Shown here piece after piece: positions 30,601 through 62,366 of a DNA stretch of 64,000 bases. Position numbers and translations under genes: made by a program. The notes under the pieces were generated by a model, which did no database searches, was not told where the DNA came from, and worked only from the letters and a program-made list of their open reading frames with translations. Origin of the DNA: Candidatus Omnitrophota bacterium (GTDB lineage Bacteria; Omnitrophota; Gorgyraeia; Gygaellales; UBA12090). Location: contig JAUSCZ010000023.1 of assembly GCA_030674475.1 (NCBI GenBank), forward strand, positions 87,819-151,818. Reading direction: 5' to 3'. Each line of letters opens with the position of its first letter. The first letter of the stretch is position 1.

Positions 30601-31150
30601 ATTGAAAAAGGTTTACGATCGCTTAAATAAGGACAGTGGCGATCAGCCAGAACGTCCGTTGTTTTTTAAAGATGTGAGTCCGGATGAAGAGGTTGCGGAG
30701 GACCAGAAGTATGTTGATTTTCTGCCGGTATATTCGCTCCAGGCTGTAGCGACAAGCTTTGGTAAGGAAGAGCACGTGGAAATGCTTGGATGGAAGAAAA
30801 TAAAAAATAAACGGCTGAATAAAGACATGTTTATTGCTCAGGTTGTTGGTAAGTCAATGGAGCCGACAATTTTGGATGGTAGTTTTTGTCTTTTCCGCTT
30901 TGAGCGGGGCGGCTCGCGCAATGGTTTGGTGGTGCTTGTCGAATCTCGGTTGGTTACCGATCCTGAAACCAGCCAGAAATTTACAATCAAGCGCTATAAA
31001 AGTGAAAAAGAAACTTTGCCCGATGGCGGGTGGAGGCACAAGCGCATAATACTCTCACCTGATAACAAAGACTTTAAAGATATCACTCTGGAGAATGTGA
31101 GCGGTGATGATTTTAGAATCGTAGCAGAATTTGTAGAGGCATTATCTTAA
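27620..31150 (+). CDS. hsdR: type I restriction enzyme R subunit with a C-terminal LexA/UmuD-like S24 serine peptidase domain fusion
   Basis: SF2 helicase motifs (GSGKS Walker A, VIVDEAHSSQ DEAH box, GFTATP, QTMSRLNR). The C-terminal ~110 aa carry S24 motifs: VVGKSMEPTILDGSFCLF (Ser nucleophile), FTIKRYK (catalytic Lys), RIILSPDNKDF...GDDFRIVAEFVEAL. Confidence 0.85.
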   Translation: MRLRMVSIINEKAFEESIEQSLIDHGGYVKGDPNNFSRDLAIDQAVLFQFIKDTQKNVWDSLTAIHGADVEKKFLYRLNQELDARGMLDCLRRGVTDYGKKIMLAYFKPVSKLNPETQKLFDKNILTVTRQVHYSTKDESSIDMLLSINGLPVATIELKNPFTGQDVDDAKRQYKYDRDERELLFQFKKRALVHFAVDTDVIYMTTRLQGSKTRYLPFNKGYNKGSGNPPNPSGHKTAYLWEVVLVKDSWMDILGRFLHLEVEEKAFDGRKFKIETLIFPRYHQLDSVRKLSSDALANGAGKNYLIQHSAGSGKSNSIAWLAYHLAGLYDKGDKRIFDAVIVITDRIVLDKQLQDTIYQFEHKLGVVEKIDKDSTQLAQALTSGTNIIITTLQKFPFVLDKVGALPRRNYAVIVDEAHSSQGGESAKKMKDVLSALDKTEIVSEKADEDDDIEDEIRESMLKRGPRPNLSFFGFTATPKAKTLEFFGQKGIDGKPQPFHLYSMRQAIEERFIFDVLENYTSYQTFFQLSKKIEDDPNMNKKKAACAIARFLTLHPYNLAQKTEVMIEHFRQVTMKKIGGKAKAMVVTASREHVVRYKHEFDRYLKEKGYKDIKALVAFSGKVLLDGIPPEYTEEGINTYIDKQGQTRYVREKELPGKFATSEYQILLVAEKYQTGYDEPLLHTMYVDKRLDGVKAVQTMSRLNRTCPGKEDTFILDFVNKREDILAAFQPYYEQTQLSDVTDPNKLYDLKTKLDSFRVVYQSDIDAFCVVFFRNKELQTKREHAQLNSIVDVAVERFKVIEKDEHKEDFVNTLGVFVRLYAFLAQIMPFQDIELEKFYAYSRLLLKKLPGPDRGERYHLGDEVALEYYRLQKIADGKIQLQKDSGAAIEPISEAGTKKDKDEYALLSEIINLLNDRFGTDFTEADKLFFDQIEEEMVMDEKLGVQAKTNTMDNFKYGFEDVFIAKLVDRMDQNQDIFNKIMDDKAFAAVVKDYLLKKVYDRLNKDSGDQPERPLFFKDVSPDEEVAEDQKYVDFLPVYSLQAVATSFGKEEHVEMLGWKKIKNKRLNKDMFIAQVVGKSMEPTILDGSFCLFRFERGGSRNGLVVLVESRLVTDPETSQKFTIKRYKSEKETLPDGGWRHKRIILSPDNKDFKDITLENVSGDDFRIVAEFVEALS

Positions 31151-44252: not shown

Positions 44253-44329
44253 TTTATAGTTGATAGTTTATAGTTAATAGCAAATATAGCTAAAACCCTA
44301 AACCCTAAACCCTAAACCCTAAACTAAAT
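44244..44329 (+). mobile_element. heptamer-array element copy A: (AGTTKAT)x5 - AGCAAATATAGCT - (AAACCCT)x4, filling the korA-korB gap
   Basis: Tandem 7-mers read directly. The korA stop codon lies inside the first array and the korB ATG abuts the last repeat; related copies at 52528-52638 and 59918-60024. Confidence 0.6.
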
Positions 44330-48115: not shown

Positions 48116-48226
48116 ATGGTTACAGTTATAGTGGTATTAGTCGTGGTTTTGATTATCGCGGCCTTCTTGCTCAAGAATAAAGGCGGTGGATGCGGCTGTG
48201 GAAGCACTCCTGAGAAAAAAGCTTGA
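48116..48226 (+). CDS. FeoB-associated Cys-rich membrane peptide-like small ORF (36 aa)
   Basis: MVTVIVVLVVVLIIAAFLLKNKGGGCGCGSTPEKKA: single TM helix, then basic residues, then a GCGCG cluster. GGAGGT 5 nt upstream of ATG. Overlaps the start of the next gene in another frame. Confidence 0.4.
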   Translation: MVTVIVVLVVVLIIAAFLLKNKGGGCGCGSTPEKKA

Positions 48227-49034
48227 GAAATTAAAAGAGGCCCTCTTATCCTATAAGAAGGTGGTTATTGCTTATTCCGGCGGGGTTGATTCCAGCTTCT
48301 TGCTTAAATGCTGTGTTGATTTTTTAGGTCCAGACCAGACTATCGCGGTAACCGCGGTTTCGCCTACCTATACCCGAAAAGAACTGCAAACCGCCCAGGA
48401 AATTGCCCAAGGGTTAGGGGTTATTCACAAAATTATTCACACCTCGGAAGTAGATGACCCAAATTTCAAGGCCAATCCCCAGAACCGCTGTTACTATTGT
48501 AAGAGCGAACTATTTTCCCTGTTGCAGTCATTAGCCAAAAAAGAGAAGGTGAGCTTTGTCCTGGACGGCACCAATGCCGATGACCTGAAAGACTATCGTC
48601 CGGGAAGCCTGGCTAAGAATGAGTTGGGAGTAAAATCGCCATTGGCTGAGGCGAATTTTACCAAAGAAGAAATCCGTGCTGCCTCTAAGGAATTGGGATT
48701 AGCAACCTGGGACGCGCCCCAGATGTCCTGTCTGGCCTCGCGTTTTGCCTACGGCCAGGAAATAAGATTAGAGGATTTAAGCCGGATTGAAAAAGCGGAA
48801 AATTACATCCGCGCCTTAGGCTTTAAGATGGTGCGCCTGCGGCATTATAAGCTCGCGGATGAAACCCTTTTGGCCCGCCTGGAGGTGGAGGGGGAAGATG
48901 TAGAGAAGGTTGCAAGTTACAAGTTGCAAGTTACAAATAAATTGAAAGAATTGGGATATAATTATATCACGCTGGATTTGGAAGGATATCGAACAGGAAG
49001 CATGAATGAGGGAATAACCGGAGGTAAGATATAA
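48186..49034 (+). CDS. PP-loop ATP pyrophosphatase, LarE-like ATP-dependent sulfur transferase family (COG1606)
   Basis: SGGVDSS PP-loop motif (VVIAYSGGVDSSF), 282 aa; family-typical Cys (QMSCLASRF). Confidence 0.6.
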   Translation: MDAAVEALLRKKLEKLKEALLSYKKVVIAYSGGVDSSFLLKCCVDFLGPDQTIAVTAVSPTYTRKELQTAQEIAQGLGVIHKIIHTSEVDDPNFKANPQNRCYYCKSELFSLLQSLAKKEKVSFVLDGTNADDLKDYRPGSLAKNELGVKSPLAEANFTKEEIRAASKELGLATWDAPQMSCLASRFAYGQEIRLEDLSRIEKAENYIRALGFKMVRLRHYKLADETLLARLEVEGEDVEKVASYKLQVTNKLKELGYNYITLDLEGYRTGSMNEGITGGKI

Positions 49035-49035
49035 A

Positions 49036-50199
49036 ATGGAACGGATATATTTAGATTACGCGGCTACTACGCCTTGCGACGCGCGGGTAGTGGAGGCAAT
49101 GCAGCCGTATTTTAGCGAGAAGTTCGGCAATCCCTCAAGCATACATTCTTTTGGTCAGGAGGCCAAGAAGGGTTTGGAGGATAGCCGTCAGGTTTTAGCG
49201 GATTTTTTGGGGGCAAAGCCTGAAGAGATTGTTTTTACCTCTGGTGGCACTGAGTCTAATAATTTTGCAATTTTTGGCATTGCCGCGGCGCAAGAGAAAA
49301 AAGGTAATCATATTATTACCAGCGTGATTGAACATCACGCGGTGAGCGAGCCGTGCAAAGTTTTAGAGAAGAAAGGCTATGCTACAACTTATGTGAAAGT
49401 GGATAAAGAGGGCATAATTGATCCGGCCGAGGTTAAAAAAGCGATTACCGATAAAACGGTCTTGATCTCCATAATGCAGGCTAATAATGAAATTGGGACC
49501 ATTCAGCCCATAGCGGAAATCGGTAAAATTGCCAAAGAAAAAGGGATTACCTTTCATACCGACGCGGTGCAAAGCGTAGGCCATATCCCGGTCAATGTCA
49601 ATGAGTTGAGTGTGGATTTATTAAGCCTTTCGGCGCATAAGTTTTACGGGCCCAAAGGGGTCGGGGCGTTGTATATCCGTAAGGGCATCCGGATAAACCG
49701 TCTTTTGCATGGTGGAGACCAGGAAAAAGGCCGCCGGGCCTCAACCTCTAATGTCAGCGGTATTGTGGGCATGGCCAAGGCCATTGAATTATGTAAAGAA
49801 AAGTTAAATGAGGAAGTCAAATTTCAGTCTGATTTACGCGATACCCTGATTAAAGGTTTAACGGCTAAGATTGAGAGAATTTATCTTAATGGCCATTCTA
49901 AATTGAGACTGCCTAACAATGTAAATATATCTTTTGAGTATATTGAAGGCGAGTCAATGCTTTTGAATCTGGATATGTTAGGGATTGCCGCTTCCACCGG
50001 CTCAGCCTGCACCTCCAGTTTTTTAGAGCCTTCCCATGTCCTGCTGGCTATTGGCCGTCCGCATGATCTAGCCCATGGCTCATTAAGGTTTTCTTTAGGC
50101 CGCTGGACTAAAAAAAGCGATATTGATTACCTTATTGAGGTTCTTCCGGGAATAGTGGATAAATTGCGCCAGATGTCGCCTCTATATGAAAAAAAATAA
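49036..50199 (+). CDS. nifS: cysteine desulfurase (NifS/IscS class)
   Basis: PLP-Lys motif SAHKFYGPKG, active-site loop SGSACTS, 387 aa. Confidence 0.85.
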   Translation: MERIYLDYAATTPCDARVVEAMQPYFSEKFGNPSSIHSFGQEAKKGLEDSRQVLADFLGAKPEEIVFTSGGTESNNFAIFGIAAAQEKKGNHIITSVIEHHAVSEPCKVLEKKGYATTYVKVDKEGIIDPAEVKKAITDKTVLISIMQANNEIGTIQPIAEIGKIAKEKGITFHTDAVQSVGHIPVNVNELSVDLLSLSAHKFYGPKGVGALYIRKGIRINRLLHGGDQEKGRRASTSNVSGIVGMAKAIELCKEKLNEEVKFQSDLRDTLIKGLTAKIERIYLNGHSKLRLPNNVNISFEYIEGESMLLNLDMLGIAASTGSACTSSFLEPSHVLLAIGRPHDLAHGSLRFSLGRWTKKSDIDYLIEVLPGIVDKLRQMSPLYEKK

Positions 50200-51217
50200 G
50201 AAAGCGTTAAGAACTAAAAAATACAGGCTGATGCCAGGAGATGGTAGTTTTATAGCGCGTATCACGGATAGCGTGCTTAAAGGGAGAGAGGTGAATCTCA
50301 GGCAGGCTAAGAGGCTGAACGCGATAAAAGGCGACGATATTTACAGTCTTTTTAATTCGGCCTACAAAATCCGCAAGAAATTTCGGGGGAAAAAGGTGGA
50401 GCTTTGCGCCATCACCAATGCCCGAAGCGGGGCCTGCGCGGAGAACTGCGCTTTTTGCGCCCAGTCCAGTTGGAATAAAACCGCGGTTAAGGTTTATCCC
50501 TTACTTAGCGAGAATGAGCTCTTTAAAAGGGCTAAGCAGGCCCAAAAAACCGGGGCGGGTTATTTTTGTATTGTTACCAGCGGCCGGCGCATCCAGAAGA
50601 AAAGCGATTTTTTGAAAATCTGTAAGGCTATTTCCAAAATCCGCTCTAAGCTAAAACTTAATGTTGATGCCTCATTAGGAGAACTAAGCCTTGATGAAGC
50701 CCGGGCGCTTAAAGACGCTGGCTTATTTCGCTATAACCATAACTTGGAGACTGCCGCAAGCCTGTATCCGGAAGTCTGCACTACCCACACCTATTCTGAC
50801 CGGATAAGGACAATTGAAAATGTCAAACAGGCGGGTTTAGAACTTTGCTGCGGCGGGATATTCGGGATGGGGGAGAGCTGGGCCCAGAGACTGGATCTGG
50901 CTTTTGCCTTGAAAAAGTTTAACCCGGAGTGCATCCCGGTAAACTTCCTGAATCCTGTTGCCGGAACTAGACTTGGCCGGAAAAAACCCTTATCTCCCCT
51001 GGAATTCCTCAAGATTACCGCTATCCTGCGTTTTATCTTTCCCCGCCAGGAAATAAAAATCTGCGGTGGCAGAGAGACCAACCTAAGGAGCCTTCAGCCG
51101 TTAATGTTTTTGGCCGGAGCAGACTCAATGATTATCGGCGACTACCTCACCACCAAAGGCAATCCTCCCCAGGACGACCTTAAAATGATTCAGGATTTAG
51201 GTTTATCCACGAATTGA
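50186..51217 (+). CDS. bioB: biotin synthase-like radical SAM enzyme
   Basis: CxxxCxxC (CAENCAFC) radical-SAM triad, YNHNLETA motif as in BioB; genomic context with bioF/bioC/bioH/bioDA. Confidence 0.65.
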   Translation: MKKNKKALRTKKYRLMPGDGSFIARITDSVLKGREVNLRQAKRLNAIKGDDIYSLFNSAYKIRKKFRGKKVELCAITNARSGACAENCAFCAQSSWNKTAVKVYPLLSENELFKRAKQAQKTGAGYFCIVTSGRRIQKKSDFLKICKAISKIRSKLKLNVDASLGELSLDEARALKDAGLFRYNHNLETAASLYPEVCTTHTYSDRIRTIENVKQAGLELCCGGIFGMGESWAQRLDLAFALKKFNPECIPVNFLNPVAGTRLGRKKPLSPLEFLKITAILRFIFPRQEIKICGGRETNLRSLQPLMFLAGADSMIIGDYLTTKGNPPQDDLKMIQDLGLSTN

Positions 51218-51232
51218 CCCGGACGTGCTACA

Positions 51233-51275
51233 GTAGCGGCGCGATTTATCGCGCTTGGAAGGAGATTTTCGGGTG
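51233..51275 (+). promoter_or_regulatory. conserved leader element (palindrome GGCGCGAT-TT-ATCGCGCT + AAGGAG + N8 + GTG) upstream of bioF; second copy at 62324-62366
   Basis: 43-nt sequence about 88% identical to 62324-62366; the differences inside the palindrome are compensatory. Confidence 0.55.
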
Positions 51276-52436
51276 ATAAATTTTAAAGAAGAATTGGCCG
51301 CGCTGGAAGCCAGAGGCTTAAGGCGCAAAATGCGCTTTGTTTCTTCGTCTTGCGATAGATACATCACGATTGAGGGTAAAAAGGTTTTAAACTTTTGCTC
51401 CAATAATTATCTGGGCCTGGCTAATGATAAACGGCTGAAAGCGGCGGCAATCTCGGCAATCAATAAATTTGGAGTGGGAACTGGGGCCTCAAGATTAGTT
51501 TCCGGCAGTAATATCCTGCATAAGCAATTAGAAGAAAAATTGGCTGATTTTAAAAGGCAGGAAGCCTGTTTAGTTTATCCCAGCGGCTATAGCGCCAATT
51601 TAGGGATAATTTCCGCCTTGGCAGATAGAAACAGTATTGTTTTTTGCGACCGCTTGAATCACGCTTCAATTATTGACGGGATTATCTTAAGCCGGGCCGA
51701 GCTGGTGAGGTATCCGCATCGGGATGTAGAAGCGTTAGAAAAATTGTTAGGTTACCATGTCACAAAGTCACAAAGTCACCAGAAACGATTGATAGTAACC
51801 GATAGCGTATTTAGTATGGATGGGGATATTGCTCCTTTGCCGGAGCTTTTGCGCTTAGCCAAAAAATACGATTGCCTGCTGATGATTGATGAAGCCCACG
51901 CCACCGGCGTTTTGGGTAAGAGCGGCAGAGGGACCTTGGAACATTTTGGCCTCAAGGCCAATAAGCGGATAATCCAGATGGGGACTTTGAGCAAGGCTTT
52001 GGGTGGCCTGGGCGGATTTCTCTGCGCAAGCCGGGAGCTGATTGACTATTTGGTTAACCGTTCGCGTTCCTTTATCTTTAGCACTGCCTTGCCCGCGGCT
52101 CTATGCGCCAGCGCTTTAGAGGCAATCAGGATAATTGAGAGAGGCGGCAATCAGCACGCAAGGCTTTTAAGTAATGCCAATTTTTTAAGAGACGGCCTAA
52201 ACTCCTTAGGTTTTAATACCTTAGAGTCTCAAACCCCGATTATTCCCATCCTCACCAAAGAACCGCGCCTAACCATGGAGTTCAGCCAAAAGCTATTTGA
52301 AAAAGGCATCTTGGTTCAAGGCATCCGCCCCCCGGCTGTCCCCGATAACCTCTGCCGTCTCCGGGTCACGGTGACGGCCAGCCACACCAAAGGCGATTTA
52401 GAGTTTGCCTTAAGTATGTTTAAAAAGATAAGATAA
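51273..52436 (+). CDS. bioF: 8-amino-7-oxononanoate synthase (ORF track starts at TTG 51255; GTG 51273 has AAGGAG 8 nt upstream)
   Basis: Class II aminotransferase fold of alpha-oxoamine synthases; PLP-Lys in TLSKALGGLGG; context with other bio genes. Confidence 0.65.
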   Translation: MINFKEELAALEARGLRRKMRFVSSSCDRYITIEGKKVLNFCSNNYLGLANDKRLKAAAISAINKFGVGTGASRLVSGSNILHKQLEEKLADFKRQEACLVYPSGYSANLGIISALADRNSIVFCDRLNHASIIDGIILSRAELVRYPHRDVEALEKLLGYHVTKSQSHQKRLIVTDSVFSMDGDIAPLPELLRLAKKYDCLLMIDEAHATGVLGKSGRGTLEHFGLKANKRIIQMGTLSKALGGLGGFLCASRELIDYLVNRSRSFIFSTALPAALCASALEAIRIIERGGNQHARLLSNANFLRDGLNSLGFNTLESQTPIIPILTKEPRLTMEFSQKLFEKGILVQGIRPPAVPDNLCRLRVTVTASHTKGDLEFALSMFKKIR

Positions 52437-52527
52437 TAGTAGCTCCTGCCCAAGAAAGCGCTTGCCCAAAACCCCTGTTTTGCCCTTGTTTTTACCCCTT
52501 TTATGTGGTTTACTTTAGGTAGCCGAA

Positions 52528-52638
52528 TTAGTTTATAGCTGATAGTTGATAGTTTAGAGCAAAAGATTAGCGAACTAAATAGAATTTATGTTTGTTTTTT
52601 TGCTATCAACTATCCGCTATCAACTATCAACCAAATAT
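52528..52638 (+). mobile_element. heptamer-array element copy B with terminal inverted heptamer arrays, inserted exactly between the ancestral leader (…CTTTAGGT) and the start codon of giant paralog 3
   Basis: Left array agtttat-agctgat-agttgat-agtttag, right array (reverse complement) gctatca-actatcc-gctatca-actatca. The flanking 52464-52524 aligns with 1424-1476 upstream of paralog 1, where the ATG follows immediately. Confidence 0.65.
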
Positions 52639-55600
52639 ATGCCTTTACGCCTAACCAAATTCCTATCTCTGTTTCTCTCTTTCTGCCTTATCCTTGAGCA
52701 GAGCGTCTTTGCTCAAAGCATAGACCTTTCCCATTACTTTGCCAACTCTGGCAAACCTATTATCCAGAGCGATAAATTTCGGCCCTTACACCTAAGGTAT
52801 CTAGGCTATGATAACTTGAGTCAGGACTTTAAGCTACTTTTAGATAAGGGAGATACTAAGAAGGAGGACTTAGAGAACAAAGCCTACATAGAAGAAAACA
52901 CCCAAACCCTGCTCAAATACTTCTTCATCGGATTAAGCCTGCCTAATGATAAGTTTTGGGTTAACCTAAGGCCGGATGCCTCGGAGAATATCATAGATGA
53001 CGACTTAGCCAAGACAGATATCGGCAGGATTATGCTGGAAGCTGATGTCCAGCTAAAGAAGGATACTGCAAGCTATACCTCACCCCAGGCCAAAGAAGGC
53101 CGGGAATACTGGGATAAGCTGTATAAGAAAGCAGAAGAGCTATTCGGAACCGAAAACATCACCATCCCCACCCTAACTAGGCCATGGATTGTCCCGGACG
53201 AGATTATTTTAAGAGAATCTCCGGATAACAGCGCCTACATTTACAAAGCTACCCTCAAGGTGATGTTGGAAGAGGACTACCTAAAAACCAGCAACCAGCC
53301 CGTCCTGGCAAAGCGAAGCGGGCCAGGGAAACCAGTAACCAGTAACCAGGTATATTCTTTTAGTGACCCCAGGCTAAAAGAGCTTAATCAATATTCTACC
53401 CAGCTAATCAAGGAAACCATAATCCCCAAGCTCACCCAGGAGATCAACTCATCCAGGAGATACGCTCCCCTAAGACAAGTCTATTACTCTCTCATCTTAG
53501 CCCAGCACTTTAAACGGAAGTTTGCCAAGCAGCCCTCGGGGCAGGCAGGAGAAAATCCCTATGTTAAGCTGATTGACTCCTGTAACCTTACCAACCTAAC
53601 CTCCAAAGAACCCTGGGATAAACTTACCTGCTTCCAAGGCTATCAGAAATCCTTTCAGCAGGGAGAATACAATATTCAAGAGCCGGTGTATACGCCTACG
53701 GGGCAGGCAATAAGAAGCTATTTTAGTGGGGGGCAGCTTCTAACAAATATTCTCAGAGTAACAACGGTAACCCCGGGGTTTGGACCACCTTCTATTTCAG
53801 GCAGCATCCATTTGAAAAAAATTGACTATTCTGTTTCGCCGGTTGCCAAAGGGGACGTAAGCCTTTTGACTGGGTTAAGGTCAAGCTCAGCGATTGAGGA
53901 AAGAAATAATGCGTCTTTATTATCTATGGGAAACTCGACCTTGAAAGGAAGGCCAACGAGAATAATGCTTTCTTTCTTTTCTAACGTTCGTGATAAATCT
54001 AAGCTTGACAATCCATTGGGAGTCGCAGTCTTAGGTGGTACTTTGAAACAGCAACTTAAGGATACTGTCCATATTGTTATGGCACATCATCTGATTGATG
54101 GCGGAGTAGAAGGAATCATCGAAAAAATAAAGATTGAGCATCCGGAAATATTAGGATTATCTCTCGGCTTTGGTTCTTTGCAACAACTGATTACTGTTAT
54201 GCAATATATTCGTTCATTGCCAGCCGCGGAAAGACCCATTGTTGCTTTAGGTAATGTTGTAGCGACTTATAACACAGAATTTTTTCTGAAGCAATACCCG
54301 GAGGTTTTTATTTGTGCAGGGCAAGGTGAAATGGCAATAGTCGATCTCGTCAAATATCGCAGAGGCGAAATAAAGAAAAATGAAATACATGATGTTGTGT
54401 ATATGAATGATGGTCAGATTATTGCAAATCCAAGGAGTCAGTCATTTCTCGTAGATATGGGAACGCCTATGACAGACTTTTTGCCCGATGTAGTAAAATC
54501 CGGGGGTGTTGTTTATATGGAGACCTCGCGCGGCTGTCCTTTTAATTGTACGATATGCGCGCGCAGACCTTTTTTGGGCATAGGTTGGAAAGGCAGGAAT
54601 TTAGATAATATTATTGGCGATATGGAGAAGGCGGCTAACTTGGGCGTCAAATTTATTAACTTTGTTGATGAAGATCTATTTGCTGGCGGTATGAAAAGGG
54701 TGATTCGTTTTGCTCAAATGATTCATGAGGCAAGAAAAGCAGGACGGATTCCTGATGATCTTATTTTTGGTACATCGGTAAGCGTAAGGAATATTTACAG
54801 AATAAATGATTCATTAGAAAATAATCTAAAAAGAAAGCAAGCCTTGGAATTATTGAAAGAGGCCGGCCTTACAGTTCTTTTCATAGGGATTGAATCTGGT
54901 TCGCCAAAGCAACTCGAGCGCTATGGTAAGGCTGCAACCATCAAAGAGAACGAGGAAGCCATTAGGATTATTGAGGATTGTGGAATATGGACTATCCCGG
55001 GTTTTATTATGCTGGATCCGCTTGTGACAATAGAGGAGATCAGGGAGAATATTGATTTTTTAAGACGAACAGGGATGGATGCCCGGATTACGTATCCTTT
55101 AAAGACATATATCCCAATGATAGGAAGCTCTTACACTCAAAAATTAATTGAAGAAGGTTTAGTTTATTCAGTCTCCTATATTCCTGATCGGTTAGCATAC
55201 GAATATTCATTTAGAGAAAAAAGAGTCGCAGATATCTTAAAAAGAATAAAAGATTGGGAAGAAAGCCAAGCAATGTTTTTCTGGGATCTAAAAATTATTT
55301 TTCGTTCCTCGCGTTTTGGTGAATTAAGCCGGGATAAACAAGAATTGGTTAGGACATTAGTTGATAAACAAACCAAGATTTTATTAGATTATTTGGATGA
55401 AATGGTTAATCTAAGCTTGAGCGAAATAGAACAAAAAGAAGTTTTTCAGAGAATATCTTTTAAGTTTGGCGTCCGCTTGATTAACGATATGTTGGAGGCC
55501 TTGCAGTACGTGGAAAATGGTTATTTGCCGCTTGGAGACAAAGAATTCAGAAGTATTATACAGAAAAGTATTATTCGGGAGATTTTGCGGTTATACTTTA

Positions 55601-56247
55601 CACAAAAACAATTTTCGATGGAGGAAGTAAGGCGTATTATCTCTGAGGAATTCCACTATAAATTTAAAGAAGATATTTTAAAGGAAATTTTTGCTTTGTT
55701 TATTAAGGAAGAACGCATCAAACAAATAGACGATAAGACGTTCTGCTTACACGAAAAGTTTTTTGTCTACAGGAATATTCCGTGGCCAGATTTGCCTAGG
55801 CCAGCTAAAGTTATAGTTGGCATTGATGATTTGGCAAGCTCGCCGTTGATTCCTCAGAAAGTTAAATTCCCGGGTGGCATCGACTTACGTTTTCTCCCTA
55901 TAGTTACCCAGGCCATAAGCAACCTAAGTTTGAACGCTTCCCGTATTCCTTTAAGCAAGTTGGATAGCATTAACCTTAATCAGGAATGGCGCCAGATACA
56001 AAAGATGGTTGAAGCCGGCATTACGCCATCAGCGGAGAGGATTAAGGAGTATATCCAGCTATCTTATCTTAATAAAGGTGAACCTAATGATATGCAGAAA
56101 GTCATTTCTTGCATTGCGGATATATTAAGATCTGAAGAAGAGCGCTGCGTTTCTACTGAGCCAACGCTAAAAGATATTCTGGTTGTGCTTGAGTCAGGAC
56201 GGTCGGCTCAGGAACTAAAAGCTGTTTTTACCGGTAGTCAGTCCTAA
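52639..56247 (+). CDS. giant paralog 3 (1203 aa from ATG 52639; ORF track begins at 52588 inside the inserted element). Family N module + B12-binding-like domain + radical-SAM core + family C module
   Basis: N-terminal 330 aa align with paralogs 1 and 2. Middle has a Rossmann-like B12-binding region, then radical SAM CxxxCxxC (CPFNCTIC) and FINFVDEDLF. C-terminus has the family C module (GGIDLRFLPIVTQ ... VEAGITPSAERIKEY ... ISCIADILRSEEER). Confidence 0.7.
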   Translation: MPLRLTKFLSLFLSFCLILEQSVFAQSIDLSHYFANSGKPIIQSDKFRPLHLRYLGYDNLSQDFKLLLDKGDTKKEDLENKAYIEENTQTLLKYFFIGLSLPNDKFWVNLRPDASENIIDDDLAKTDIGRIMLEADVQLKKDTASYTSPQAKEGREYWDKLYKKAEELFGTENITIPTLTRPWIVPDEIILRESPDNSAYIYKATLKVMLEEDYLKTSNQPVLAKRSGPGKPVTSNQVYSFSDPRLKELNQYSTQLIKETIIPKLTQEINSSRRYAPLRQVYYSLILAQHFKRKFAKQPSGQAGENPYVKLIDSCNLTNLTSKEPWDKLTCFQGYQKSFQQGEYNIQEPVYTPTGQAIRSYFSGGQLLTNILRVTTVTPGFGPPSISGSIHLKKIDYSVSPVAKGDVSLLTGLRSSSAIEERNNASLLSMGNSTLKGRPTRIMLSFFSNVRDKSKLDNPLGVAVLGGTLKQQLKDTVHIVMAHHLIDGGVEGIIEKIKIEHPEILGLSLGFGSLQQLITVMQYIRSLPAAERPIVALGNVVATYNTEFFLKQYPEVFICAGQGEMAIVDLVKYRRGEIKKNEIHDVVYMNDGQIIANPRSQSFLVDMGTPMTDFLPDVVKSGGVVYMETSRGCPFNCTICARRPFLGIGWKGRNLDNIIGDMEKAANLGVKFINFVDEDLFAGGMKRVIRFAQMIHEARKAGRIPDDLIFGTSVSVRNIYRINDSLENNLKRKQALELLKEAGLTVLFIGIESGSPKQLERYGKAATIKENEEAIRIIEDCGIWTIPGFIMLDPLVTIEEIRENIDFLRRTGMDARITYPLKTYIPMIGSSYTQKLIEEGLVYSVSYIPDRLAYEYSFREKRVADILKRIKDWEESQAMFFWDLKIIFRSSRFGELSRDKQELVRTLVDKQTKILLDYLDEMVNLSLSEIEQKEVFQRISFKFGVRLINDMLEALQYVENGYLPLGDKEFRSIIQKSIIREILRLYFTQKQFSMEEVRRIISEEFHYKFKEDILKEIFALFIKEERIKQIDDKTFCLHEKFFVYRNIPWPDLPRPAKVIVGIDDLASSPLIPQKVKFPGGIDLRFLPIVTQAISNLSLNASRIPLSKLDSINLNQEWRQIQKMVEAGITPSAERIKEYIQLSYLNKGEPNDMQKVISCIADILRSEEERCVSTEPTLKDILVVLESGRSAQELKAVFTGSQS

Positions 56248-56329
56248 CCAAAAAGTGGCATTTCCCGCCTAGTTTATTTTTTTTCCGCCTTCTCTTCCAT
56301 TATTCAATTTATCATTAGTAACTGTTAAG

Positions 56330-56400
56330 CCAAACCTACCCCGCTAACCTTAAAAGATGTGCTTATCCGGCTGGAAAATGACCCATCCTTATTTGACTAA
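56330..56400 (+). pseudogene. orphan 3'-end remnant of another giant-family paralog
   Basis: cctaccccgctaaccttaaaagatgtgcttatccggctggaaaatgac parallels 8994-9045 of paralog 2 (…TPQILKDVLILLESDNP); an in-frame stop interrupts it. Confidence 0.5.
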
Positions 56401-56537
56401 AGAGGGCTGGAAGAAGCTGGGGGGAGATAAAAGAGGGGGAGGAGATTGCCTGCCTATCCTGCCATCGGCTTCCCGTCTCGCCTTTGGCTCGCCGAGGCGG
56501 ACGCCGCGAGGCGAGCAGTCAAGCGGTATTAGGAGAT

Positions 56538-56801
56538 TTATCTTCTACGGTAGGCGTCTTCGCGGGTGTCAACGCCGTCAATAATTATATTAAGGCCTTC
56601 AATATAGAAACAAATACGATACTTTCCGACTCTGAATCTATGTGTAGCTGGCGGAAGATTAACCAGGGGTTTGGCAAAATGCAGGGGATTGCGGGAGGAA
56701 ATATATAGGCCGATTTTCTCGATAATTCTGTTTTGCAGTTGGTGGGAGAGCCTCTTGAAGTCTCGTTCTCCGGCAGGGGTAAATTCAAGACTTTCAATCA
56801 T
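56538..56801 (-). CDS. RelE/ParE-family type II toxin
   Basis: 87 aa; LEFTPAGERDFKRL ... HRFRVGKYRICFYI ... VDTREDAY matches the RelE/ParE fold signature. Confidence 0.75.
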   Translation of the reverse strand: MIESLEFTPAGERDFKRLSHQLQNRIIEKIGLYISSRNPLHFAKPLVNLPPATHRFRVGKYRICFYIEGLNIIIDGVDTREDAYRRR

Positions 56802-56809
56802 CTTGCTGG

Positions 56810-57262
56810 TCAGGATAATCCTAGCTCATGCTTGATCTTCTCAAAAGGAACCAGCCCTAACTTTTGGGCTTCAACAATGCCCTTTTTTAGTTTTAGCGCT
56901 AATTTAGGGTTGACCGGCAGGTGGGTTTCGATGGCGTCAATAAGCCAGCCGACAGGATTGTGGTGGACATATTCTTTGGCTGGAACGTTTTCTTCAAATT
57001 TCGTATCAAAGGCACAAAGCATATCCCAAAGCGAATATGTGTCAAATATAAAATACTTAGGAGAGCCGCCCTTATCTGTTATTACTCCGGCTTTGAAATT
57101 TTTAGGAGAAGATAATCCGGCATTTTTAAGCTCTTTGGCAGAAACAGCTGAAAATTTTGTCAGCTTCTCTAGCTTCACTAATTTTTTCCCCAAAGATATA
57201 CTGGACAATGATTTTGCTTTCATTTCTTTGCTCCTCAATAAAGAGGATAACATATCCAGCAA
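56810..57262 (-). CDS. Phd/YefM-like antitoxin (start codon uncertain; internal Met codons possible)
   Basis: Directly upstream of and co-oriented with the RelE gene (8-nt gap); the central region resembles the Phd/YefM fold. Confidence 0.5.
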   Translation of the reverse strand: MLDMLSSLLRSKEMKAKSLSSISLGKKLVKLEKLTKFSAVSAKELKNAGLSSPKNFKAGVITDKGGSPKYFIFDTYSLWDMLCAFDTKFEENVPAKEYVHHNPVGWLIDAIETHLPVNPKLALKLKKGIVEAQKLGLVPFEKIKHELGLS

Positions 57263-57329
57263 TTCAAGTCAAGGCAATTTCCAGGATTTGTCTTGATACT
57301 GAGTGATTACTTTAAGATTATATAGTATC

Positions 57330-57360
57330 TTGACAAGTCATATATAATATGTTATATAAT
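57330..57360 (+). promoter_or_regulatory. sigma70-like promoter (TTGACA-N17-TATATA/TATAAT) positioned so that transcription would start at or within about 3 nt of the ATG of the HTH-Fic gene (leaderless mRNA candidate)
   Basis: ttgaca at 57330-57335; tatataat at 57353-57360; ATG at 57365; no SD. Confidence 0.4.
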
Positions 57361-57364
57361 AATT

Positions 57365-58291
57365 ATGCTGAATAGCAATAATTATATTGGCAAAATCAGG
57401 GAAATGCTGGAAAAAACCGGCTGGGGGCAAGCTCAATTTGCCCAGGAGCTGGGCGTAACTTTTGCCACAGTTAACCGCTGGCTCAACGGCCACCACAGGC
57501 CGCATTTGAGCCAGATACGCCAGATTGAGAGGTTACATAAAAACATTATCGGAATCATCCCGGTAACCAAGCAAGAAATGGAGCAGATTATTTTACAGTT
57601 GAAGGCCAAGATAAAGCAGTATCCGGATATTAAGAAAATCTTGCGGGATGATACAACATCCGAGGAGTTTCTGTTGGAGTTGACCTATAATTCCGACGCC
57701 ATTGAGGGGAATACATTAACTAAGAAAGAGACGGAAACAGTTATCTTCAATAACGCCTCTATCAAGGATAAAAGCTTAATTGAACATCTGGAGGCGGTAA
57801 ATCATGCGGTGATCCTGAAGGATATTTTTTCGGGGAAGATTGGCTGCCCGGTTGATGAAGAGCTGATAAAAAAGACGCATAAGATATTGATGCAGGGCAT
57901 CCGGGATGACGCCGGCGAATACGCCAGCCATCAGAGGGCAATCCGGGGGGTGGATTTGATCCTGCCGTCCCCCGATGATATTGCCGGGGAAATGAAGTTA
58001 TTTTTAAGCAAAGTTAATGACTTCCCGCCTCGACCGATTGAGCATATTGCCAGGATGCACGCGGATTTTGAGGCGATTCATCCTTTCGGCGACGGCAATG
58101 GCCGCGTAGGACGGCTGATTATGATTGTTCAGTTAATTCATTGTGGTTTTGCTCCCTGTATCATTAGCGTTAATGAAAAAGCCCGGTATTATGAATCCCT
58201 AGAATATGTCCAAAAAAAGTCTGAAACGCATCTTGTGTGTTTCCTGGCTGAAGCGGTATTGAAGGGCTATGAGTTAATTAGTTCTCACTGA
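57365..58291 (+). CDS. Fic-family protein with N-terminal Xre-type HTH
   Basis: HTH (GQAQFAQELGVTFATVNRWLNG) and Fic motif HPFGDGNGRVGR. Confidence 0.8.
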   Translation: MLNSNNYIGKIREMLEKTGWGQAQFAQELGVTFATVNRWLNGHHRPHLSQIRQIERLHKNIIGIIPVTKQEMEQIILQLKAKIKQYPDIKKILRDDTTSEEFLLELTYNSDAIEGNTLTKKETETVIFNNASIKDKSLIEHLEAVNHAVILKDIFSGKIGCPVDEELIKKTHKILMQGIRDDAGEYASHQRAIRGVDLILPSPDDIAGEMKLFLSKVNDFPPRPIEHIARMHADFEAIHPFGDGNGRVGRLIMIVQLIHCGFAPCIISVNEKARYYESLEYVQKKSETHLVCFLAEAVLKGYELISSH

Positions 58292-58450
58292 AAAACTCTC
58301 GTTTTTCAGTGAGAACTAATTCCAAAGGGGCTCACGCCCCTATGGCGTTCGTTCCGACTCCGTCGGAACTCACTGTTACCCCTTAAGGGGGTTGCCTGCA
58401 ACCCCCTTAAAATCCCCCAGTAGTTACCACTTTTTCAGTGGTAACTAATT
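58279..58450 (+). other. cluster of five consecutive perfect stem-loops bounded by direct repeats TTTTTCAGTGRKAACTAATT (58302-58321 and 58431-58450); candidate structured RNA or REP/MITE-like insertion
   Basis: Five stems read directly: a 17-bp stem covering the Fic stop; aggggc-tcac-gcccct; gttccgac-tcc-gtcggaac; ttaagggggttg-cctg-caacccccttaa; agttaccact-ttttc-agtggtaact. Confidence 0.5.
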
Positions 58451-58469
58451 GGCAAGAGATATAAATGAT

Positions 58470-59171
58470 ATGGTTAAGACCCTGGTCTTTATCCACGGCT
58501 GGGCCAGCGCGCCGGAGATCTGGCAGAGGCAGAGGGAATATTTTGCCAAAGATTATGAGGTTGTCCTGCCGGATATAAGTCCGGCCCGGGATATTCAAGA
58601 AGCGGCAGGCCTGCTCAAGGATGCAATTAAAGACAGGAAGGATTTTGTCCTGATTGGCTGGTCTCTGGGCTGGATGGTGATTTTAGAAGCGCTCAAGAGT
58701 TTATCCTTAAAGCCTAAGGCCGTGGTGGCGGTAAATTCTACGCCTAATTTTTGCTCTGACGAATATCTGGAGACAGGTTTTACCCAAACCCATCTGAATA
58801 AGATGATAAGGGATTGTAAGCGCGATCCCCAAAAGACCAGGGAGAATTTTTATAAAGGACTCCTTACAGAGAGCGGAAAGAGCATGGCCAGCAGTTTTCA
58901 GTTTAAAAACATAGATTATAGCAAGCTGATTTATGGCTTGTCCATGCTTAAGGATGCTAATTACCGGGATTTTATCCGGGCTATAGATATCCCGGCGCTG
59001 ATTATTACCGGGGCCAGGGATACTATTTGTGTTCCTCAGGTATCCGAATATATGCGTCAGAGGATTAAGCAGTCGGAATTAAAGGTTTTTGACTGTGGGC
59101 ACTTGCCGTTTCTGGATAAGGCTGAGGAATTTAATTTCGCGATAGCTGATTTTATTAGAAAGTTAAAATGA
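58470..59171 (+). CDS. bioH: alpha/beta hydrolase, BioH-like pimeloyl-ACP methyl ester esterase (ORF track starts at TTG 58449)
   Basis: VFIHGW N-terminal motif, nucleophile elbow GWSLG, C-terminal His in CGHLPF; adjacent and coupled to bioC. Confidence 0.55.
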   Translation: MVKTLVFIHGWASAPEIWQRQREYFAKDYEVVLPDISPARDIQEAAGLLKDAIKDRKDFVLIGWSLGWMVILEALKSLSLKPKAVVAVNSTPNFCSDEYLETGFTQTHLNKMIRDCKRDPQKTRENFYKGLLTESGKSMASSFQFKNIDYSKLIYGLSMLKDANYRDFIRAIDIPALIITGARDTICVPQVSEYMRQRIKQSELKVFDCGHLPFLDKAEEFNFAIADFIRKLK

Positions 59172-59929
59172 TTTCCACTCAAAAAATAAGAGATAATTTT
59201 TCCCGCAGCGCGATACATTATGAGAAATACGCGGATATTCAGGCCAAGCTGGCCCAAGAACTACTGGAAGAGGTAATCGGAGCAGGATATACAGCGAATG
59301 AGGTCTTGGACATTGGATGCGGAACCGGATGGCTATTGGGTGAGCTAAAGAGATTTCTGCCCCAAAGCCGGCTCTGGGGTTTGGATATCAGCCTGGCAAT
59401 GGCGCGTAAGACAAAAGCAAAGATTGAAGAGGTGTTGACCGCGGATGCCGCCTTTTTGCCGTTTAAGGATAAGGCCTTGGACCTGGTTTTATCCAATGCC
59501 GTTTATCAATGGGTGCCGGATTTGGAGGCGGCCTTTAAAGAGGCGCGTAGGATTCTTAAATCCGGCGGCTGTTTTATGTTTAATTGCTTTGGGGCCAAGA
59601 CCTTGCGGGAACTGCGCCAGTGTTTTGGGATAGAGGAAACCTTTCTTCCTCGGGCGGATTTTATAAGAGAGGCGTTGGAGAGGGCAGGGTTTTCCTGCCC
59701 GGAGTTTAAGGTCAGGGAGTGCAACCGGCATTTTGATAATTTAGCCGATATCTTAAGCTGGCTGAAATATATCGGGGTAAACCGGATTAATCAGCATCAG
59801 GGGTTTTTAACCCCGTCCCGGCTGGCTAAGGCCGACCATTTCTATCGCAGTAACTTTCGCGGTAACGGCCAGGTCTATGCCACCTTTGAGGTCATCAGCG
59901 TAAAAGCAATAAAAGCAGTTGATAGTTGA
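59168..59929 (+). CDS. bioC: malonyl-ACP O-methyltransferase
   Basis: SAM-binding motif LDIGCGTGW, about 250 aa, N-terminal YEKYADIQ typical of BioC; the stop codon lies inside element copy C. Confidence 0.6.
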   Translation: MISTQKIRDNFSRSAIHYEKYADIQAKLAQELLEEVIGAGYTANEVLDIGCGTGWLLGELKRFLPQSRLWGLDISLAMARKTKAKIEEVLTADAAFLPFKDKALDLVLSNAVYQWVPDLEAAFKEARRILKSGGCFMFNCFGAKTLRELRQCFGIEETFLPRADFIREALERAGFSCPEFKVRECNRHFDNLADILSWLKYIGVNRINQHQGFLTPSRLAKADHFYRSNFRGNGQVYATFEVISVKAIKAVDS

Positions 59930-60024
59930 TAGTGTATGCCTGCCTGCCGGCAGGGTTTATAGCAAATAAATTAAAACTGTTTATCAATGAGCTATAAACT
60001 ATCAACCATAAACCATAAACTAAA
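59918..60024 (+). mobile_element. heptamer-array element copy C (GTTGATAGTTGATAGT - palindrome CCTGCCGGCAGG - …AAACTAT CAACCAT AAACCAT AAACTAA) between bioC and bioDA
   Basis: Read directly; provides the bioC stop codon and abuts the bioDA ATG with no SD. Confidence 0.6.
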
Positions 60025-62049
60025 ATGTCTAATTCTATATTTATCACCGCAACCGATACCGGAGCCGGGAAAACCATTATTTCCTGCGCCATTGGCCTGG
60101 CCTTGCAAAAAAAAGGTATTGATGTTGGATATATGAAACCATTTCAATGCTCCGGCGATGACACGGATTTTGTGATTAAGACCTTAGGTATTCAAGACGA
60201 TAAAAATTTGGTTAATCCTTATTACGCGAAAGAGCCGCTTGCTCCCTATGTCGCCTTTAAAAGGGAAAAAATAAGGATCAATTTAGATAAAGTCTTTTCC
60301 GCGTATCATAAGTTAAAAAAAAGACACGAATTCCTTATCATTGAAGGCGCCGGCGGGCTGTTAGTTCCCTTGCGAGAAAATTATCTGGTTGCGGATTTGA
60401 TCCGGGACCTGGATGTCCCGGCGCTCATTGTGGCCAGGGCAGGCTTAGGGACATTGAATCATACTTTGCTTACCCAAAGATACGCCCTGGATTACGGGGT
60501 TAAGGTTAAAGGCGTAATCATTAATAATTATCAAGGAAAGACTGCCGCGGAAAAGACCAATCCCAATGTCTTAAAGGAATTCCTGGATGTGCCTATTTTA
60601 GGAATAGTTCCTTGGTTGAAAAATGTTAAGTCTAAAGATGGCTTGAGGAGGCTGGGGAAAATAGCCGGGGAAAATATAGATTTAAAGACTTTACTAAAAA
60701 CAGAAAAGCCCCTCACCCGGCAGTTGATTAAGCGGGATAAGGATTTCCTCTGGCATCCTTTTACCCAGATGCGGGATTGGCTTAAGGATGAGCCTTTAAT
60801 TATTGATGAGGCCAAGGGGAATTATTTGAAAGATACTAACGGCAAATGGTATTTAGACGGAGTCTCCAGCCTTTGGGTGAATGTTCACGGCCACCGCAGA
60901 AGAGAGATAGACATAGCCATAAATAGACAACTGAATAAGGTGGCCCATAGCACATTGTTGGGATTAAGCAATGTGCCTTCTATTGAATTGGCCCAGCGGC
61001 TGGTAGAGATTGCCCCCAAAGGCCTGATCAAGGTTTTTTATTCCGACAGCGGCTCAACCGCGGTGGAGATTGCCTTGAAGATGGCTTATCAATATTGGCA
61101 GTATCTGGATAAGGCTAAAACAAGATTTATTCATTTGGAGAACGCCTATCATGGAGATACCATAGGCTCGGTGAGTGTGGGCGGGATGGATTTGTTTCAT
61201 AAGACCTACAAGGGTCTGCTTTTTGAGAGCTATAAGGCGGATTCGCCTTATTGCTACCGCTGTCCCAAGGGTAAAAATTATCCTGGGTGTAATTTTGAGT
61301 GTCTGGATAGGCTAAGAGATATTTTAAGACAACATCATTCTTCAACTGCCGCGCTTATAGTTGAGCCTTTAGTCCAGGCCGCCGGCGGTATCATTGTTTG
61401 GCCTGAAGGCGTATATAGGAAGATGCGCGAGCTTTGCCATAAGCATAATGTGCTTTTGATTGCCGATGAGGTGGCCGTAGGTTTTGGGAGGACTGGCTAT
61501 ATATTTGCCTCTGAGACTGAAGGTGTAACGCCGGATATCTTGTGCTTAGCCAAGGGGATTACCGGGGGGTATCTGCCTTTAGCCGCCACCCTGACTACCC
61601 AAAAGATATTTGATGCCTTTTCGGGAGAGTATAAGGAACAAAAGACTTTTTTTCACGGACACACCTATACCGGAAATCCCCTGGCCTGCGCCGCTGCCTT
61701 GGCCAATTTAGGGCTTTTTAAAAAAGAAAAAACCCTCCAAAAACTTCAGCCCAAGATTAAATTTTTAGGAAAAGAATTAGAGAAGTTTAAGAAATTGGAG
61801 CATATCGGAGACATCCGCCAGAAGGGTTTTATGGTGGGAATTGAACTGGTAAAAAATAAAGGAACCAAAGAGCCGTATTCCTGGGAAGAAAGGATTGGGA
61901 TAAAGATTTGCCAAAAGGCCAGGGAATATGGGGTCATCCTGCGCCCCTTAGGCAATGTCATTGTCCTTATGCCGCCTTTGGCGATAAGCAAAGAGGAATT
62001 GAAACAGCTTGTTGATGCCGCCTATAAGGCGATAAGTTTTGTGCAATGA
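60025..62049 (+). CDS. bioDA: bifunctional dethiobiotin synthetase / adenosylmethionine-8-amino-7-oxononanoate aminotransferase fusion (BioD-BioA)
   Basis: N-terminal BioD P-loop FITATDTGAGKT and EGAGGLLVP. C-terminal class-III aminotransferase motifs (DEVAVGFGRTG, HGHTYTGNPLACAAALA). 674 aa, a single ORF. Confidence 0.8.
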   Translation: MSNSIFITATDTGAGKTIISCAIGLALQKKGIDVGYMKPFQCSGDDTDFVIKTLGIQDDKNLVNPYYAKEPLAPYVAFKREKIRINLDKVFSAYHKLKKRHEFLIIEGAGGLLVPLRENYLVADLIRDLDVPALIVARAGLGTLNHTLLTQRYALDYGVKVKGVIINNYQGKTAAEKTNPNVLKEFLDVPILGIVPWLKNVKSKDGLRRLGKIAGENIDLKTLLKTEKPLTRQLIKRDKDFLWHPFTQMRDWLKDEPLIIDEAKGNYLKDTNGKWYLDGVSSLWVNVHGHRRREIDIAINRQLNKVAHSTLLGLSNVPSIELAQRLVEIAPKGLIKVFYSDSGSTAVEIALKMAYQYWQYLDKAKTRFIHLENAYHGDTIGSVSVGGMDLFHKTYKGLLFESYKADSPYCYRCPKGKNYPGCNFECLDRLRDILRQHHSSTAALIVEPLVQAAGGIIVWPEGVYRKMRELCHKHNVLLIADEVAVGFGRTGYIFASETEGVTPDILCLAKGITGGYLPLAATLTTQKIFDAFSGEYKEQKTFFHGHTYTGNPLACAAALANLGLFKKEKTLQKLQPKIKFLGKELEKFKKLEHIGDIRQKGFMVGIELVKNKGTKEPYSWEERIGIKICQKAREYGVILRPLGNVIVLMPPLAISKEELKQLVDAAYKAISFVQ

Positions 62050-62323: not shown

Positions 62324-62366
62324 GTAGCGGTGCGATTTATCGCACCTGTAAGGAGATTTTCAGGTG
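62324..62366 (+). promoter_or_regulatory. second copy of the conserved leader element (palindrome GGTGCGAT-TT-ATCGCACC + AAGGAG + N8 + GTG) upstream of the YjeF-N gene
   Basis: See 51233-51275; the palindrome arms carry compensatory substitutions. Confidence 0.55.

Follow-up and report, generated by a model that had tools for sequence, protein, structure and literature searches.

The biotin genes of Pseudomonas aeruginosa form a bioBFHCD-type operon, and a BirA regulon was reportedly described by Rodionov et al. in 2002. In Arabidopsis (BIO3-BIO1) and in fungi, dethiobiotin (DTB) synthetase and diaminopelargonic acid (DAPA) aminotransferase are the two activities of bifunctional enzymes. Here we analysed the biotin locus in a 64-kb stretch of DNA from a Candidatus Omnitrophota bacterium (contig JAUSCZ010000023.1; the whole stretch is called the window, and coordinates given without a locus name refer to it), in which genes for a LarE-family ATP pyrophosphatase and a NifS-type cysteine desulfurase precede the biotin synthase gene bioB. 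The region is an Omnitrophota-type biotin operon with the order bioB, bioF, bioH-like, bioC and a fused bioD-bioA. We consider it rather probable that this operon was altered by two lineage-specific rearrangements and that NifS is a general persulfide donor, with BioB as one client among several. The published scheme that divides BioB into Type I and Type II sorts by position 97 alone. The source of the sulfur for turnover of Type II BioB is unknown, and the neighbourhood search made by its discoverers gave no helper gene (PMC10813225). In the LarE family, the motif CxxC...C defines a [4Fe-4S] subclass, which takes its sulfur from a cysteine desulfurase (PMC9283937).

To describe the locus, the proteins of the window were searched against Pfam and NCBIfam profiles, and its relatives were read as loci of about 20 kb (L001 being the window's own contig). 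BioB loci were taken from a scan of genome contigs with a BioB alignment, in which 74 loci outside Omnitrophota were among the matches listed, and the closest relatives of the window were recovered separately by exact-protein look-up; among these loci, L084 and L085 correspond to the public assembly GCA_003499645.1 and a matching metagenome contig. In addition, 80 metagenome loci centred on NifS relatives were sampled, and NifS proteins at least 69% identical were read as the Omnitrophota type. Every gene that a first-pass annotation of this DNA had named was found where it had been placed or a few codons away (open reading frames (ORFs), Pfam, NCBIfam), and profile searches bore out its description of the bio genes as contiguous apart from a block at 52437-58448. 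The genes and the insertion are as follows.

48186-49034, + strand: LarE-family PP-loop ATP pyrophosphatase, [4Fe-4S] type (alternative start 48198)
49036-50199, + strand: NifS-type cysteine desulfurase, beginning 1 nt past the LarE stop
50186-51217, + strand: biotin synthase BioB (likely true start 50231)
51273-52436, + strand (ORF from 51255): BioF, 8-amino-7-oxononanoate synthase (TIGR00858, 470 bits, cut-off 426)
52437-58445, no strand: accessory insert of approximately 6.0 kb separating bioF from bioH, delimited by the homology breaks against uninterrupted relatives
58449-59171, + strand: BioH-like alpha/beta-hydrolase, putative pimeloyl-acyl carrier protein (ACP) methyl ester esterase (likely start 58470)
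59168-59929, + strand: BioC, malonyl-ACP O-methyltransferase (TIGR02072, 172 bits, cut-off 185)
60025-62049, + strand: BioD-BioA fusion of 674 amino acids (aa), one continuous ORF with no internal stop

The order bioB, bioF, bioH, bioC, bioD is that of the BirA-regulated bioBFHCD-type operons, and in Omnitrophota relatives a palindromic BirA site overlaps the -35 box. The window differs from these operons in that bioA is fused to bioD, neither birA nor a BirA operator is present at the locus, the operon is interrupted by 6 kb of accessory DNA, and LarE and NifS are attached at its 5' end. LarE matched TIGR00268 with 320 bits (cut-off 150) and the LarE structure of L. plantarum (5udq) with an E value of 7e-49. 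Its PP-loop reads SGGVDS (SGGxDS in the family), the tri-cysteine CxxC...C site (RCYYCK and MSCLASRF) is kept in all aligned homologues, and the residues that bind the phosphate of P2CMN (the mononucleotide of pyridinium-3,5-biscarboxylic acid), Ser180, Arg212 and Arg214 in L. plantarum numbering, are matched by SRF and VRLR. NifS matched TIGR03402 with 583 bits (cut-off 531) and has the features of a class I cysteine desulfurase, with the pyridoxal phosphate lysine in SAHKFYGPKG and the persulfide cysteine loop STGSACTS. Window LarE thus shares SGGxDS, CxxC...C and the substrate-phosphate residues with the [4Fe-4S] LarE of Thermotoga maritima, which works with IscS, and it adjoins a cysteine desulfurase, the type of donor shown experimentally to serve [4Fe-4S] LarE (PMC9283937). 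In T. maritima, however, the desulfurase genes lie far from larE, whereas in the window 1 nt separates the two genes, and the pair is kept throughout the phylum; no larA, larB or larC was seen near window LarE. BioB matched TIGR00433 with 395 bits (cut-off 225) and contains the radical S-adenosylmethionine (SAM) motif CAENCAFC, the motif YNHNLET and a BATS match of 97 bits. For BioF, the GTG start at 51273 is also the one called in L001. The BioH-like protein reached 97 bits with TIGR01738, below the cut-off of 207, and has the GWSLG nucleophile elbow and the C-terminal His; every Omnitrophota locus examined has a gene of this kind in the interval from bioF to bioC.

Apart from a putative toxin-antitoxin pair, all real genes of the 64-kb window lie on the + strand. 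Because nearly every gene of the window has this orientation, co-orientation is no evidence of an operon, and it lends no weight to the coupling of NifS to bioB that had been noted earlier. The junction of the two genes is indeed tight, but the reported overlap depends on the choice of start codon: homologues align from Met16 of BioB (50231), which would give a 31-nt gap between NifS and BioB instead of a 14-nt overlap.

The relatives suggest how this junction arose. Loci with an Omnitrophota-type NifS almost always contained a small NifU-like gene, LarE, NifS and BirA. The series LarE-NifS-BirA was found in L087, L090, L092-L094, L096, L098, L101, L157, L173 and L007, with the NifU-like gene upstream in most of them, and in L091, L097, L099 and L100 LarE and NifS were present on contigs that end before any birA. 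Genes of sulfur assimilation were seen ahead of the NifU-like, LarE, NifS, BirA cassette in two of these loci (HcyBio and a NIL-ferredoxin at 355-1982 of L096; ThiF, Rrf2, MetY, CysK, MetX and MetW at 1-5741 of L173), which suggests a larger sulfur island. A search of 2.15 Mb of fetched loci for the BirA operator (motif TGT[ACT]AACC-N14-16-GGTTGACA; form used for membership TGTnAACC-N14-16-GGTTnACA) gave 46 matches, all but two of which (44) fell where they were expected, so that the motif proved highly specific. The operator lies approximately 50-60 nt upstream of bioB in the majority of about 40 loci with labels from many phyla, and its right half doubles as the -35 element TTGACA of the bio promoter; the loci whose bio promoters it marks carry labels of Geobacteraceae, Desulfobacterota, Nitrospirota, Planctomycetota and Omnitrophota (e.g. 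L007, 6699-6728). In L005, L007, L095, L096, L101, L116 and L157 it was found 4-5 nt past the birA stop. Since the Omnitrophota operator and promoter follow birA, the regulated bio unit starts at bioB, and LarE and NifS lie upstream of that unit. In L096 and L101 the operator after birA precedes the gene of a TonB-dependent receptor, not bioB, and the same gene order, birA and then a TonB-dependent receptor, was seen in L173 (where the operator was not searched); the receptor behind the operator presumably serves biotin uptake.

NifS relatives of other lineages (55-64% identical) were found beside MnmA in at least 11 loci and beside NadA in at least five, the biotin module is followed by MnmA and NadA in L005, L007 and L101, and MnmA, with or without NadA, comes after bioDA in L005 and L007 and lies downstream in L169. 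The backbone thus looks like a sulfur-enzyme neighbourhood centred on NifS in which birA and a biotin module are embedded. In the window family (window, L001, L082/83, L084/85, L089 and the P0016 contig) no birA was found at the bio locus. No BirA operator was found in the bio region of the window or at any place in L082, L084 or L089, even at 3/16 mismatches, apart from a few 3-mismatch matches far from the bio genes. The tight junction of NifS and bioB is a derived state reached after loss of birA and its operator: deletion of that segment put NifS beside bioB in the window lineage. According to this history, the ancestral Omnitrophota order would have been a NifU-like gene, a [4Fe-4S] LarE, NifS, birA and a BirA operator over the bio -35 element, followed by a biotin-acquisition module (bio operon or TonB-dependent receptor) and then by MnmA and NadA. 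Loss of birA and the operator would have left LarE, NifS, bioB and bioF as one packed unit, perhaps co-transcribed, with no recognisable BirA control.

The BioB encoded in this unit is itself unusual. Its best match in the PDB was 8vdw (295 bits), and the E. coli structure 1r30 scored 169 bits; the closest solved chains, 8vdw and 8vcw, we take to be the Type II BioB of Blautia obeum and Veillonella parvula. At the auxiliary-cluster positions 43, 97, 128 and 188 (E. coli numbering) the window protein has Cys, Cys, Asp and Cys-Cys, and an extra Cys lies three residues ahead of the equivalent of Arg260, position 260 having been read from the HMMER alignment (CGGRE versus SAGRE). In its own numbering these sites are C74, C128, D161, C221/C222, C293 and R296. 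The auxiliary-site pattern was invariant in 17/17 closest homologues, the named ones of which all belong to Omnitrophota/Omnitrophica. Type I enzymes, which have a [2Fe-2S] cluster with Cys97, Cys128, Cys188 and Arg260, are defined by Cys128 and Ser43, where the window BioB has Asp and Cys. With Type II it shares Cys43 and Cys188, yet it has Cys instead of the Type II Ser at position 97, and its Asp128 sets it apart from both types, which have Cys there. The published scheme would file it as Type I, because that scheme uses position 97 alone. Overall, the best match to 8vdw, the Cys at position 43 and the anaerobic host liken it to the [4Fe-5S] Type II enzyme (PMC10813225), and judged from its residues it appears to resemble Type II without fitting either type; its C-C-D-C ligand pattern escapes the Type I/Type II scheme. 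Among related BioB proteins with labels from other anaerobic phyla at least eight other combinations were seen, e.g. C-S-C-C, C-G-S-C, C-G-C-C, C-C-C-C and C-D-C-C.

The position of LarE and NifS directly upstream of bioB had been taken in the first-pass annotation to suggest a dedicated sulfur supply for BioB. As stated, this idea is not supported by the wider distribution: the LarE-NifS pair occurs phylum-wide and usually stands before birA, birA in turn normally precedes the promoter and operator of the bio genes, which leaves LarE and NifS outside the regulated unit, and the LarE-NifS-BirA cassette is equally conserved where a TonB-dependent receptor replaces bioB (L096, L101, L173). LarE, NifS and BioB do occur joined throughout the window family, but L002, L023 and L060 have a bio operon with no adjoining LarE or NifS, and L005 has one without LarE. 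We favour NifS as the probable general persulfide donor of the cell, whose likely clients would be enzymes with an open-site [4Fe-4S] cluster, namely LarE, MnmA, NadA and the Type-II-like BioB; BioB would then be one client among several and not the reason for the LarE-NifS pair. Two observations weigh against this reading. In L121 the BirA operator (8855-8884) lies 117 nt upstream of NifS, which is followed by BirA, BioF, BioH, BioC and BioDA, so at least one lineage appears to put NifS under biotin control. In two unrelated genomes of high GC content from outside Omnitrophota, L052 (NadA, LarE, BioB, one gene, MnmA) and L064 (CysK, CysE, LarE, BioB), the bioB start is overlapped by LarE; neither has further bio genes close by, the two LarE proteins share only 48% identity, and the ligand patterns of the two BioB proteins are not the same. 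By our rough estimate about 0.02 chance LarE-BioB pairs of this kind would be expected among the 74 loci.

L121, L052 and L064 speak for a dedicated relay, in which NifS would make a persulfide from cysteine and a [4Fe-4S] LarE-like enzyme, or NifS itself, would reload the auxiliary non-core sulfide of a Type-II-like BioB for multiple turnovers. The tight joining of LarE and NifS to bioB in the window family, the closeness of window BioB to the 4Fe-5S Type II structures, the lack of a known sulfur donor for Type II BioB (PMC10813225) and the [4Fe-5S] chemistry common to LarE and Type II BioB (PMC9283937, PMC10813225) point the same way. Nevertheless, we hold such a dedicated relay to be unlikely: besides the distribution set out above, NifS adjoins BioB in 0/74 of the non-Omnitrophota BioB loci (among the matches listed), window LarE keeps every P2CMN-binding residue and gives no sign of a new function, and LarE adenylates its substrate, whereas the BioB reaction has no obvious carboxylate substrate. 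The opposite explanation, that the synteny is purely historical, with LarE and NifS working for the nickel-pincer cofactor or for Fe-S clusters and tRNA thiolation and lying beside the bio genes through birA with no tie to BioB, would account for a cassette that is conserved with or without bio genes and for the presence of LarE in unrelated contexts in L086, L088, L171 and L172. Genes on one strand with short gaps are moreover the norm in the window, so the tight spacing is ordinary. This explanation is, in our estimate, rather unlikely as well, given the recurrence of LarE-BioB pairs in two unrelated non-Omnitrophota genomes, the NifS gene behind the operator in L121, and the adjacency of NifS and birA, which is kept across deep Omnitrophota divergence (BioB approximately 50% identical). 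Furthermore, no larA, larB or larC was found in about 20 LarE neighbourhoods of about 20 kb each, and no AIRC-type LarB, DUF111 or DUF2088 gene adjoined LarE in them. Although we favour NifS as a general donor, the chance that this enzyme, alone or together with LarE, truly serves the unusual window BioB is small yet not negligible. The broader idea that a [4Fe-4S] LarE and NifS constitute the missing sulfide-reloading system of anaerobic BioB proteins, in Omnitrophota and sporadically elsewhere, seems to us quite improbable; if true, the system would serve a previously undescribed BioB variant (Cys43, Cys97, Asp128, Cys188) and give LarE a role outside nickel-pincer cofactor synthesis. A whole-word search of the literature library found no paper tying LarE to BioB by genome context.

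The other rearrangement is the block of about 6 kb between bioF and bioH. Homology with uninterrupted relatives ends at approximately 52423-52436 and restarts at 58446-58485. The genes bioF and bioH touch or overlap in the sister genomes L084 and L085 and in the P0016 contig (BioB at about 80% identity), and likewise in distant loci, namely L002, L005, L007, L023 and L060 of Omnitrophota and PVC (Planctomycetes-Verrucomicrobia-Chlamydiae) bacteria and L056, L072, L075 and L081. The suggestion that the block is accessory DNA inserted into a biosynthetic operon, for which a synteny comparison of bioF and bioH had been proposed, is thus upheld in sister and distant loci alike, and the block is supported as accessory and defence DNA. 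The giant paralog, the paralog remnant, the Fic gene and the five-hairpin cluster reported in it were all found. Its contents are listed below.

52454-52521, + strand: 68-nt promoter-like upstream region, 85% match to 1411-1477, ahead of giant paralog 1
52588-56247, + strand: 1219-aa member of the giant family, its N-terminus resembling a signal peptide
56329-56376, + strand: remnant of the 3' end of a giant-family paralog, 48 nt, 90% match to 8988-9035
56538-56801, - strand: RelE/ParE-like putative toxin of 87 aa (weak PF05016 match: E 3e-4, 21.7 bits, cut-off 23)
56810-57262, - strand: partner ORF upstream of the toxin, putative antitoxin (probable start Met14; no family match)
57365-58291, + strand: HTH_3 and Fic protein (Pfam Fic 74 bits, HTH_3 32 bits)
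58276-58450, + strand: five stable hairpins (minimum free energy -94.4 kcal/mol, z = -11.4)

In the giant protein at 52588, the regions of about aa 18-418 and 1096-1215 are conserved and paralogous to 1477-5478, and the middle consists of a B12-binding and radical-SAM module that only this copy has. As judged from the match of its upstream region to that of paralog 1, the inserted giant gene may bring its own promoter. Members of this family were seen at 1477-5478, 5517-9068 (a copy broken into three ORFs) and 52588-56247 of the window, at 13997-17017 of L082 and at 2-2983 of L170; they have a conserved N-terminus of about 370 aa and a C-terminus of about 110 aa, with a middle that is wholly different between copies. 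A B12-binding/radical-SAM middle is odd in an apparently secreted protein, and PADLOC and NCBIfam searches with the giant-family proteins matched nothing except the radical-SAM domain. The minus-strand genes, the only ones in the window, form a pair as annotated before, but the family names RelE and Phd given to them hold less well, the toxin having only a weak ParE_toxin match and its partner no family match. Among PADLOC candidates, the Fic protein matched PDC-S04 with 135 bits and SoFic with 97 bits. A TTGACA at 57330-57335 is followed about 17 nt on by an extended -10 element, and because the predicted transcription start falls at or near the Fic ATG, the mRNA is plausibly leaderless. The first hairpin overlaps the Fic stop, and the first and last hairpins are related in sequence.

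Outside the window, only its two nearest relatives (L170 and L082) had a giant-family gene at the bioF/bioH site, and the accompanying small cargo was different in each. In L170, whose nucleotide sequence is about 89% identical over bioH-bioDA, bioH is preceded by a giant-family gene (at least 993 aa) and a gene of 102 aa. L082 has AbiEi/AbiEii, a giant-family gene of 1006 aa and an antitoxin-like pair at this site, and just upstream of its bioH lies a 75-nt remnant of the 3' end of the window Fic gene. In the simplest history, an ancestor shared by the window, L170 and L082 would have acquired a single giant-family gene, together with its own promoter, at the bioF/bioH junction, and the site would afterwards have swapped toxin-antitoxin and defence cargo, with a ParE-like pair and HTH-Fic in the window and AbiE in L082. 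That three related genomes have a giant-family gene here could alternatively mean that the block is a conserved functional part of the biotin cluster, e.g. with the B12/radical-SAM giant protein acting in the pathway, which we regard as most improbable: neither the sister clade nor any other Omnitrophota bio operon examined contains the block, the radical-SAM middle is confined to the window copy, giant paralogs stand elsewhere in the window (1477-5478, 5517-9068), and the neighbours within the block are putative toxin-antitoxin and defence genes. The giant radical-SAM protein was accordingly rejected as a member of biotin synthesis on its absence from the sisters and its paralogs elsewhere in the window. 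With one site and variable cargo across related genomes, the insertion resembles the hotspots of defence and toxin-antitoxin islets (AbiE, SoFic/PDC-S04, ParE-like). It differs from them in its location within a biosynthetic operon, in the lack of a detected integrase or att site, and in its constant element, an uncharacterised giant family of secreted type. Pfam searches of the block showed no integrase and no transposase, blastn across the junctions (word size 7) showed no flanking direct repeats, and scans of the whole window with Rfam (gathering threshold) and for tRNAs gave no matches, and hence neither a riboswitch nor a tRNA attachment site for the insertion. That the operon is split is in itself ordinary accessory-DNA biology.

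The last gene of the operon encodes a dethiobiotin synthetase domain (AAA_26, aa 4-202) and a DAPA aminotransferase domain (BioA, aa 242-670) joined by a linker of about 25 aa. The 674-aa fusion noted earlier is real; the accompanying statement that such fusions are uncommon in bacteria is misleading, since the fusion is typical of Omnitrophota. It was also found in L002, L005, L007, L060, L082, L084 and L170, and full-length homologues formed at least 115 clusters (57-91% identity), the named ones all being Omnitrophota/Omnitrophica. In L023 and in loci labelled Geobacter or Desulfobacterota bioD and bioA are separate, and the fusion is probably confined to Omnitrophota and related PVC bacteria. 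As in Arabidopsis BIO3-BIO1 and the fungal enzymes, BioD is N-terminal and BioA C-terminal in one polypeptide. The BioA half of the window protein, in contrast, is closest to Bacillus subtilis BioA (3dod, 522 bits), and none of the top 60 PDB matches was a plant fusion chain, from which it follows that the fusion is probably independent of the plant and fungal one. Going by these comparisons, the BioD-BioA fusion is a phylum-level trait that probably arose on its own. The NCBI annotation of the source genome contains a 441-aa BioA product (P0285, 100% identity), not the 674-aa ORF, and the fusion is likely under-annotated there.

Several smaller features were found around these genes.

48116-48226, + strand: ORF of 36 aa with one hydrophobic/transmembrane helix followed by GGGCGCGS, overlapping the LarE start (no NCBIfam match)
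51233-51270, + strand: 38-nt hairpin and Shine-Dalgarno element, immediately 5' of the BioF GTG start

A small gene is called at the position of the 36-aa ORF in L001 and in the P0016 contig as well. Upstream of it lies a 247-aa RnfD/NqrB-like membrane protein, accompanied in relatives by a YHS-domain protein, and these genes may form a metal- or thiol-handling membrane module upstream of LarE. A second copy of the 38-nt element precedes the GTG start of a YjeF_N gene (62324-62361), with a compensatory change in the stem between the two copies; the two matches compare with 0 expected, and, L001 apart, none of the other 167 fetched loci contained the element. A short intergenic GATAGTT-rich repeat (ATAGTTGATAGTT...) occurs at 52529-52563, 44240-44284, 59991-60023 and 52598-52634, its sites being between two POR subunit genes, in the bioC/bioDA gap and on both sides of the giant-gene start. 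Elsewhere in the window, an ORF of 1176 aa (27620-31150) combines helicase domains like those of type I restriction HsdR with a C-terminal Peptidase_S24 (LexA-like) domain, an unusual fusion.

Together, these results describe a bacterial BioD-BioA fusion that spans a phylum and a motif for the BirA operator by which bio promoters can be recognised in loci with labels from many anaerobic phyla. Omnitrophota provide a useful test case for the sulfur supply of BioB, because throughout the phylum the biotin module is physically linked to a cysteine desulfurase, in most cases accompanied by a [4Fe-4S] LarE; in the window lineage the desulfurase stands in the same gene string as bioB, and in one lineage it lies behind the BirA operator. 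NifS, with or without LarE, is a testable candidate donor for anaerobic BioB, and the outcome of such a test would bear on both mechanism and biotin production.

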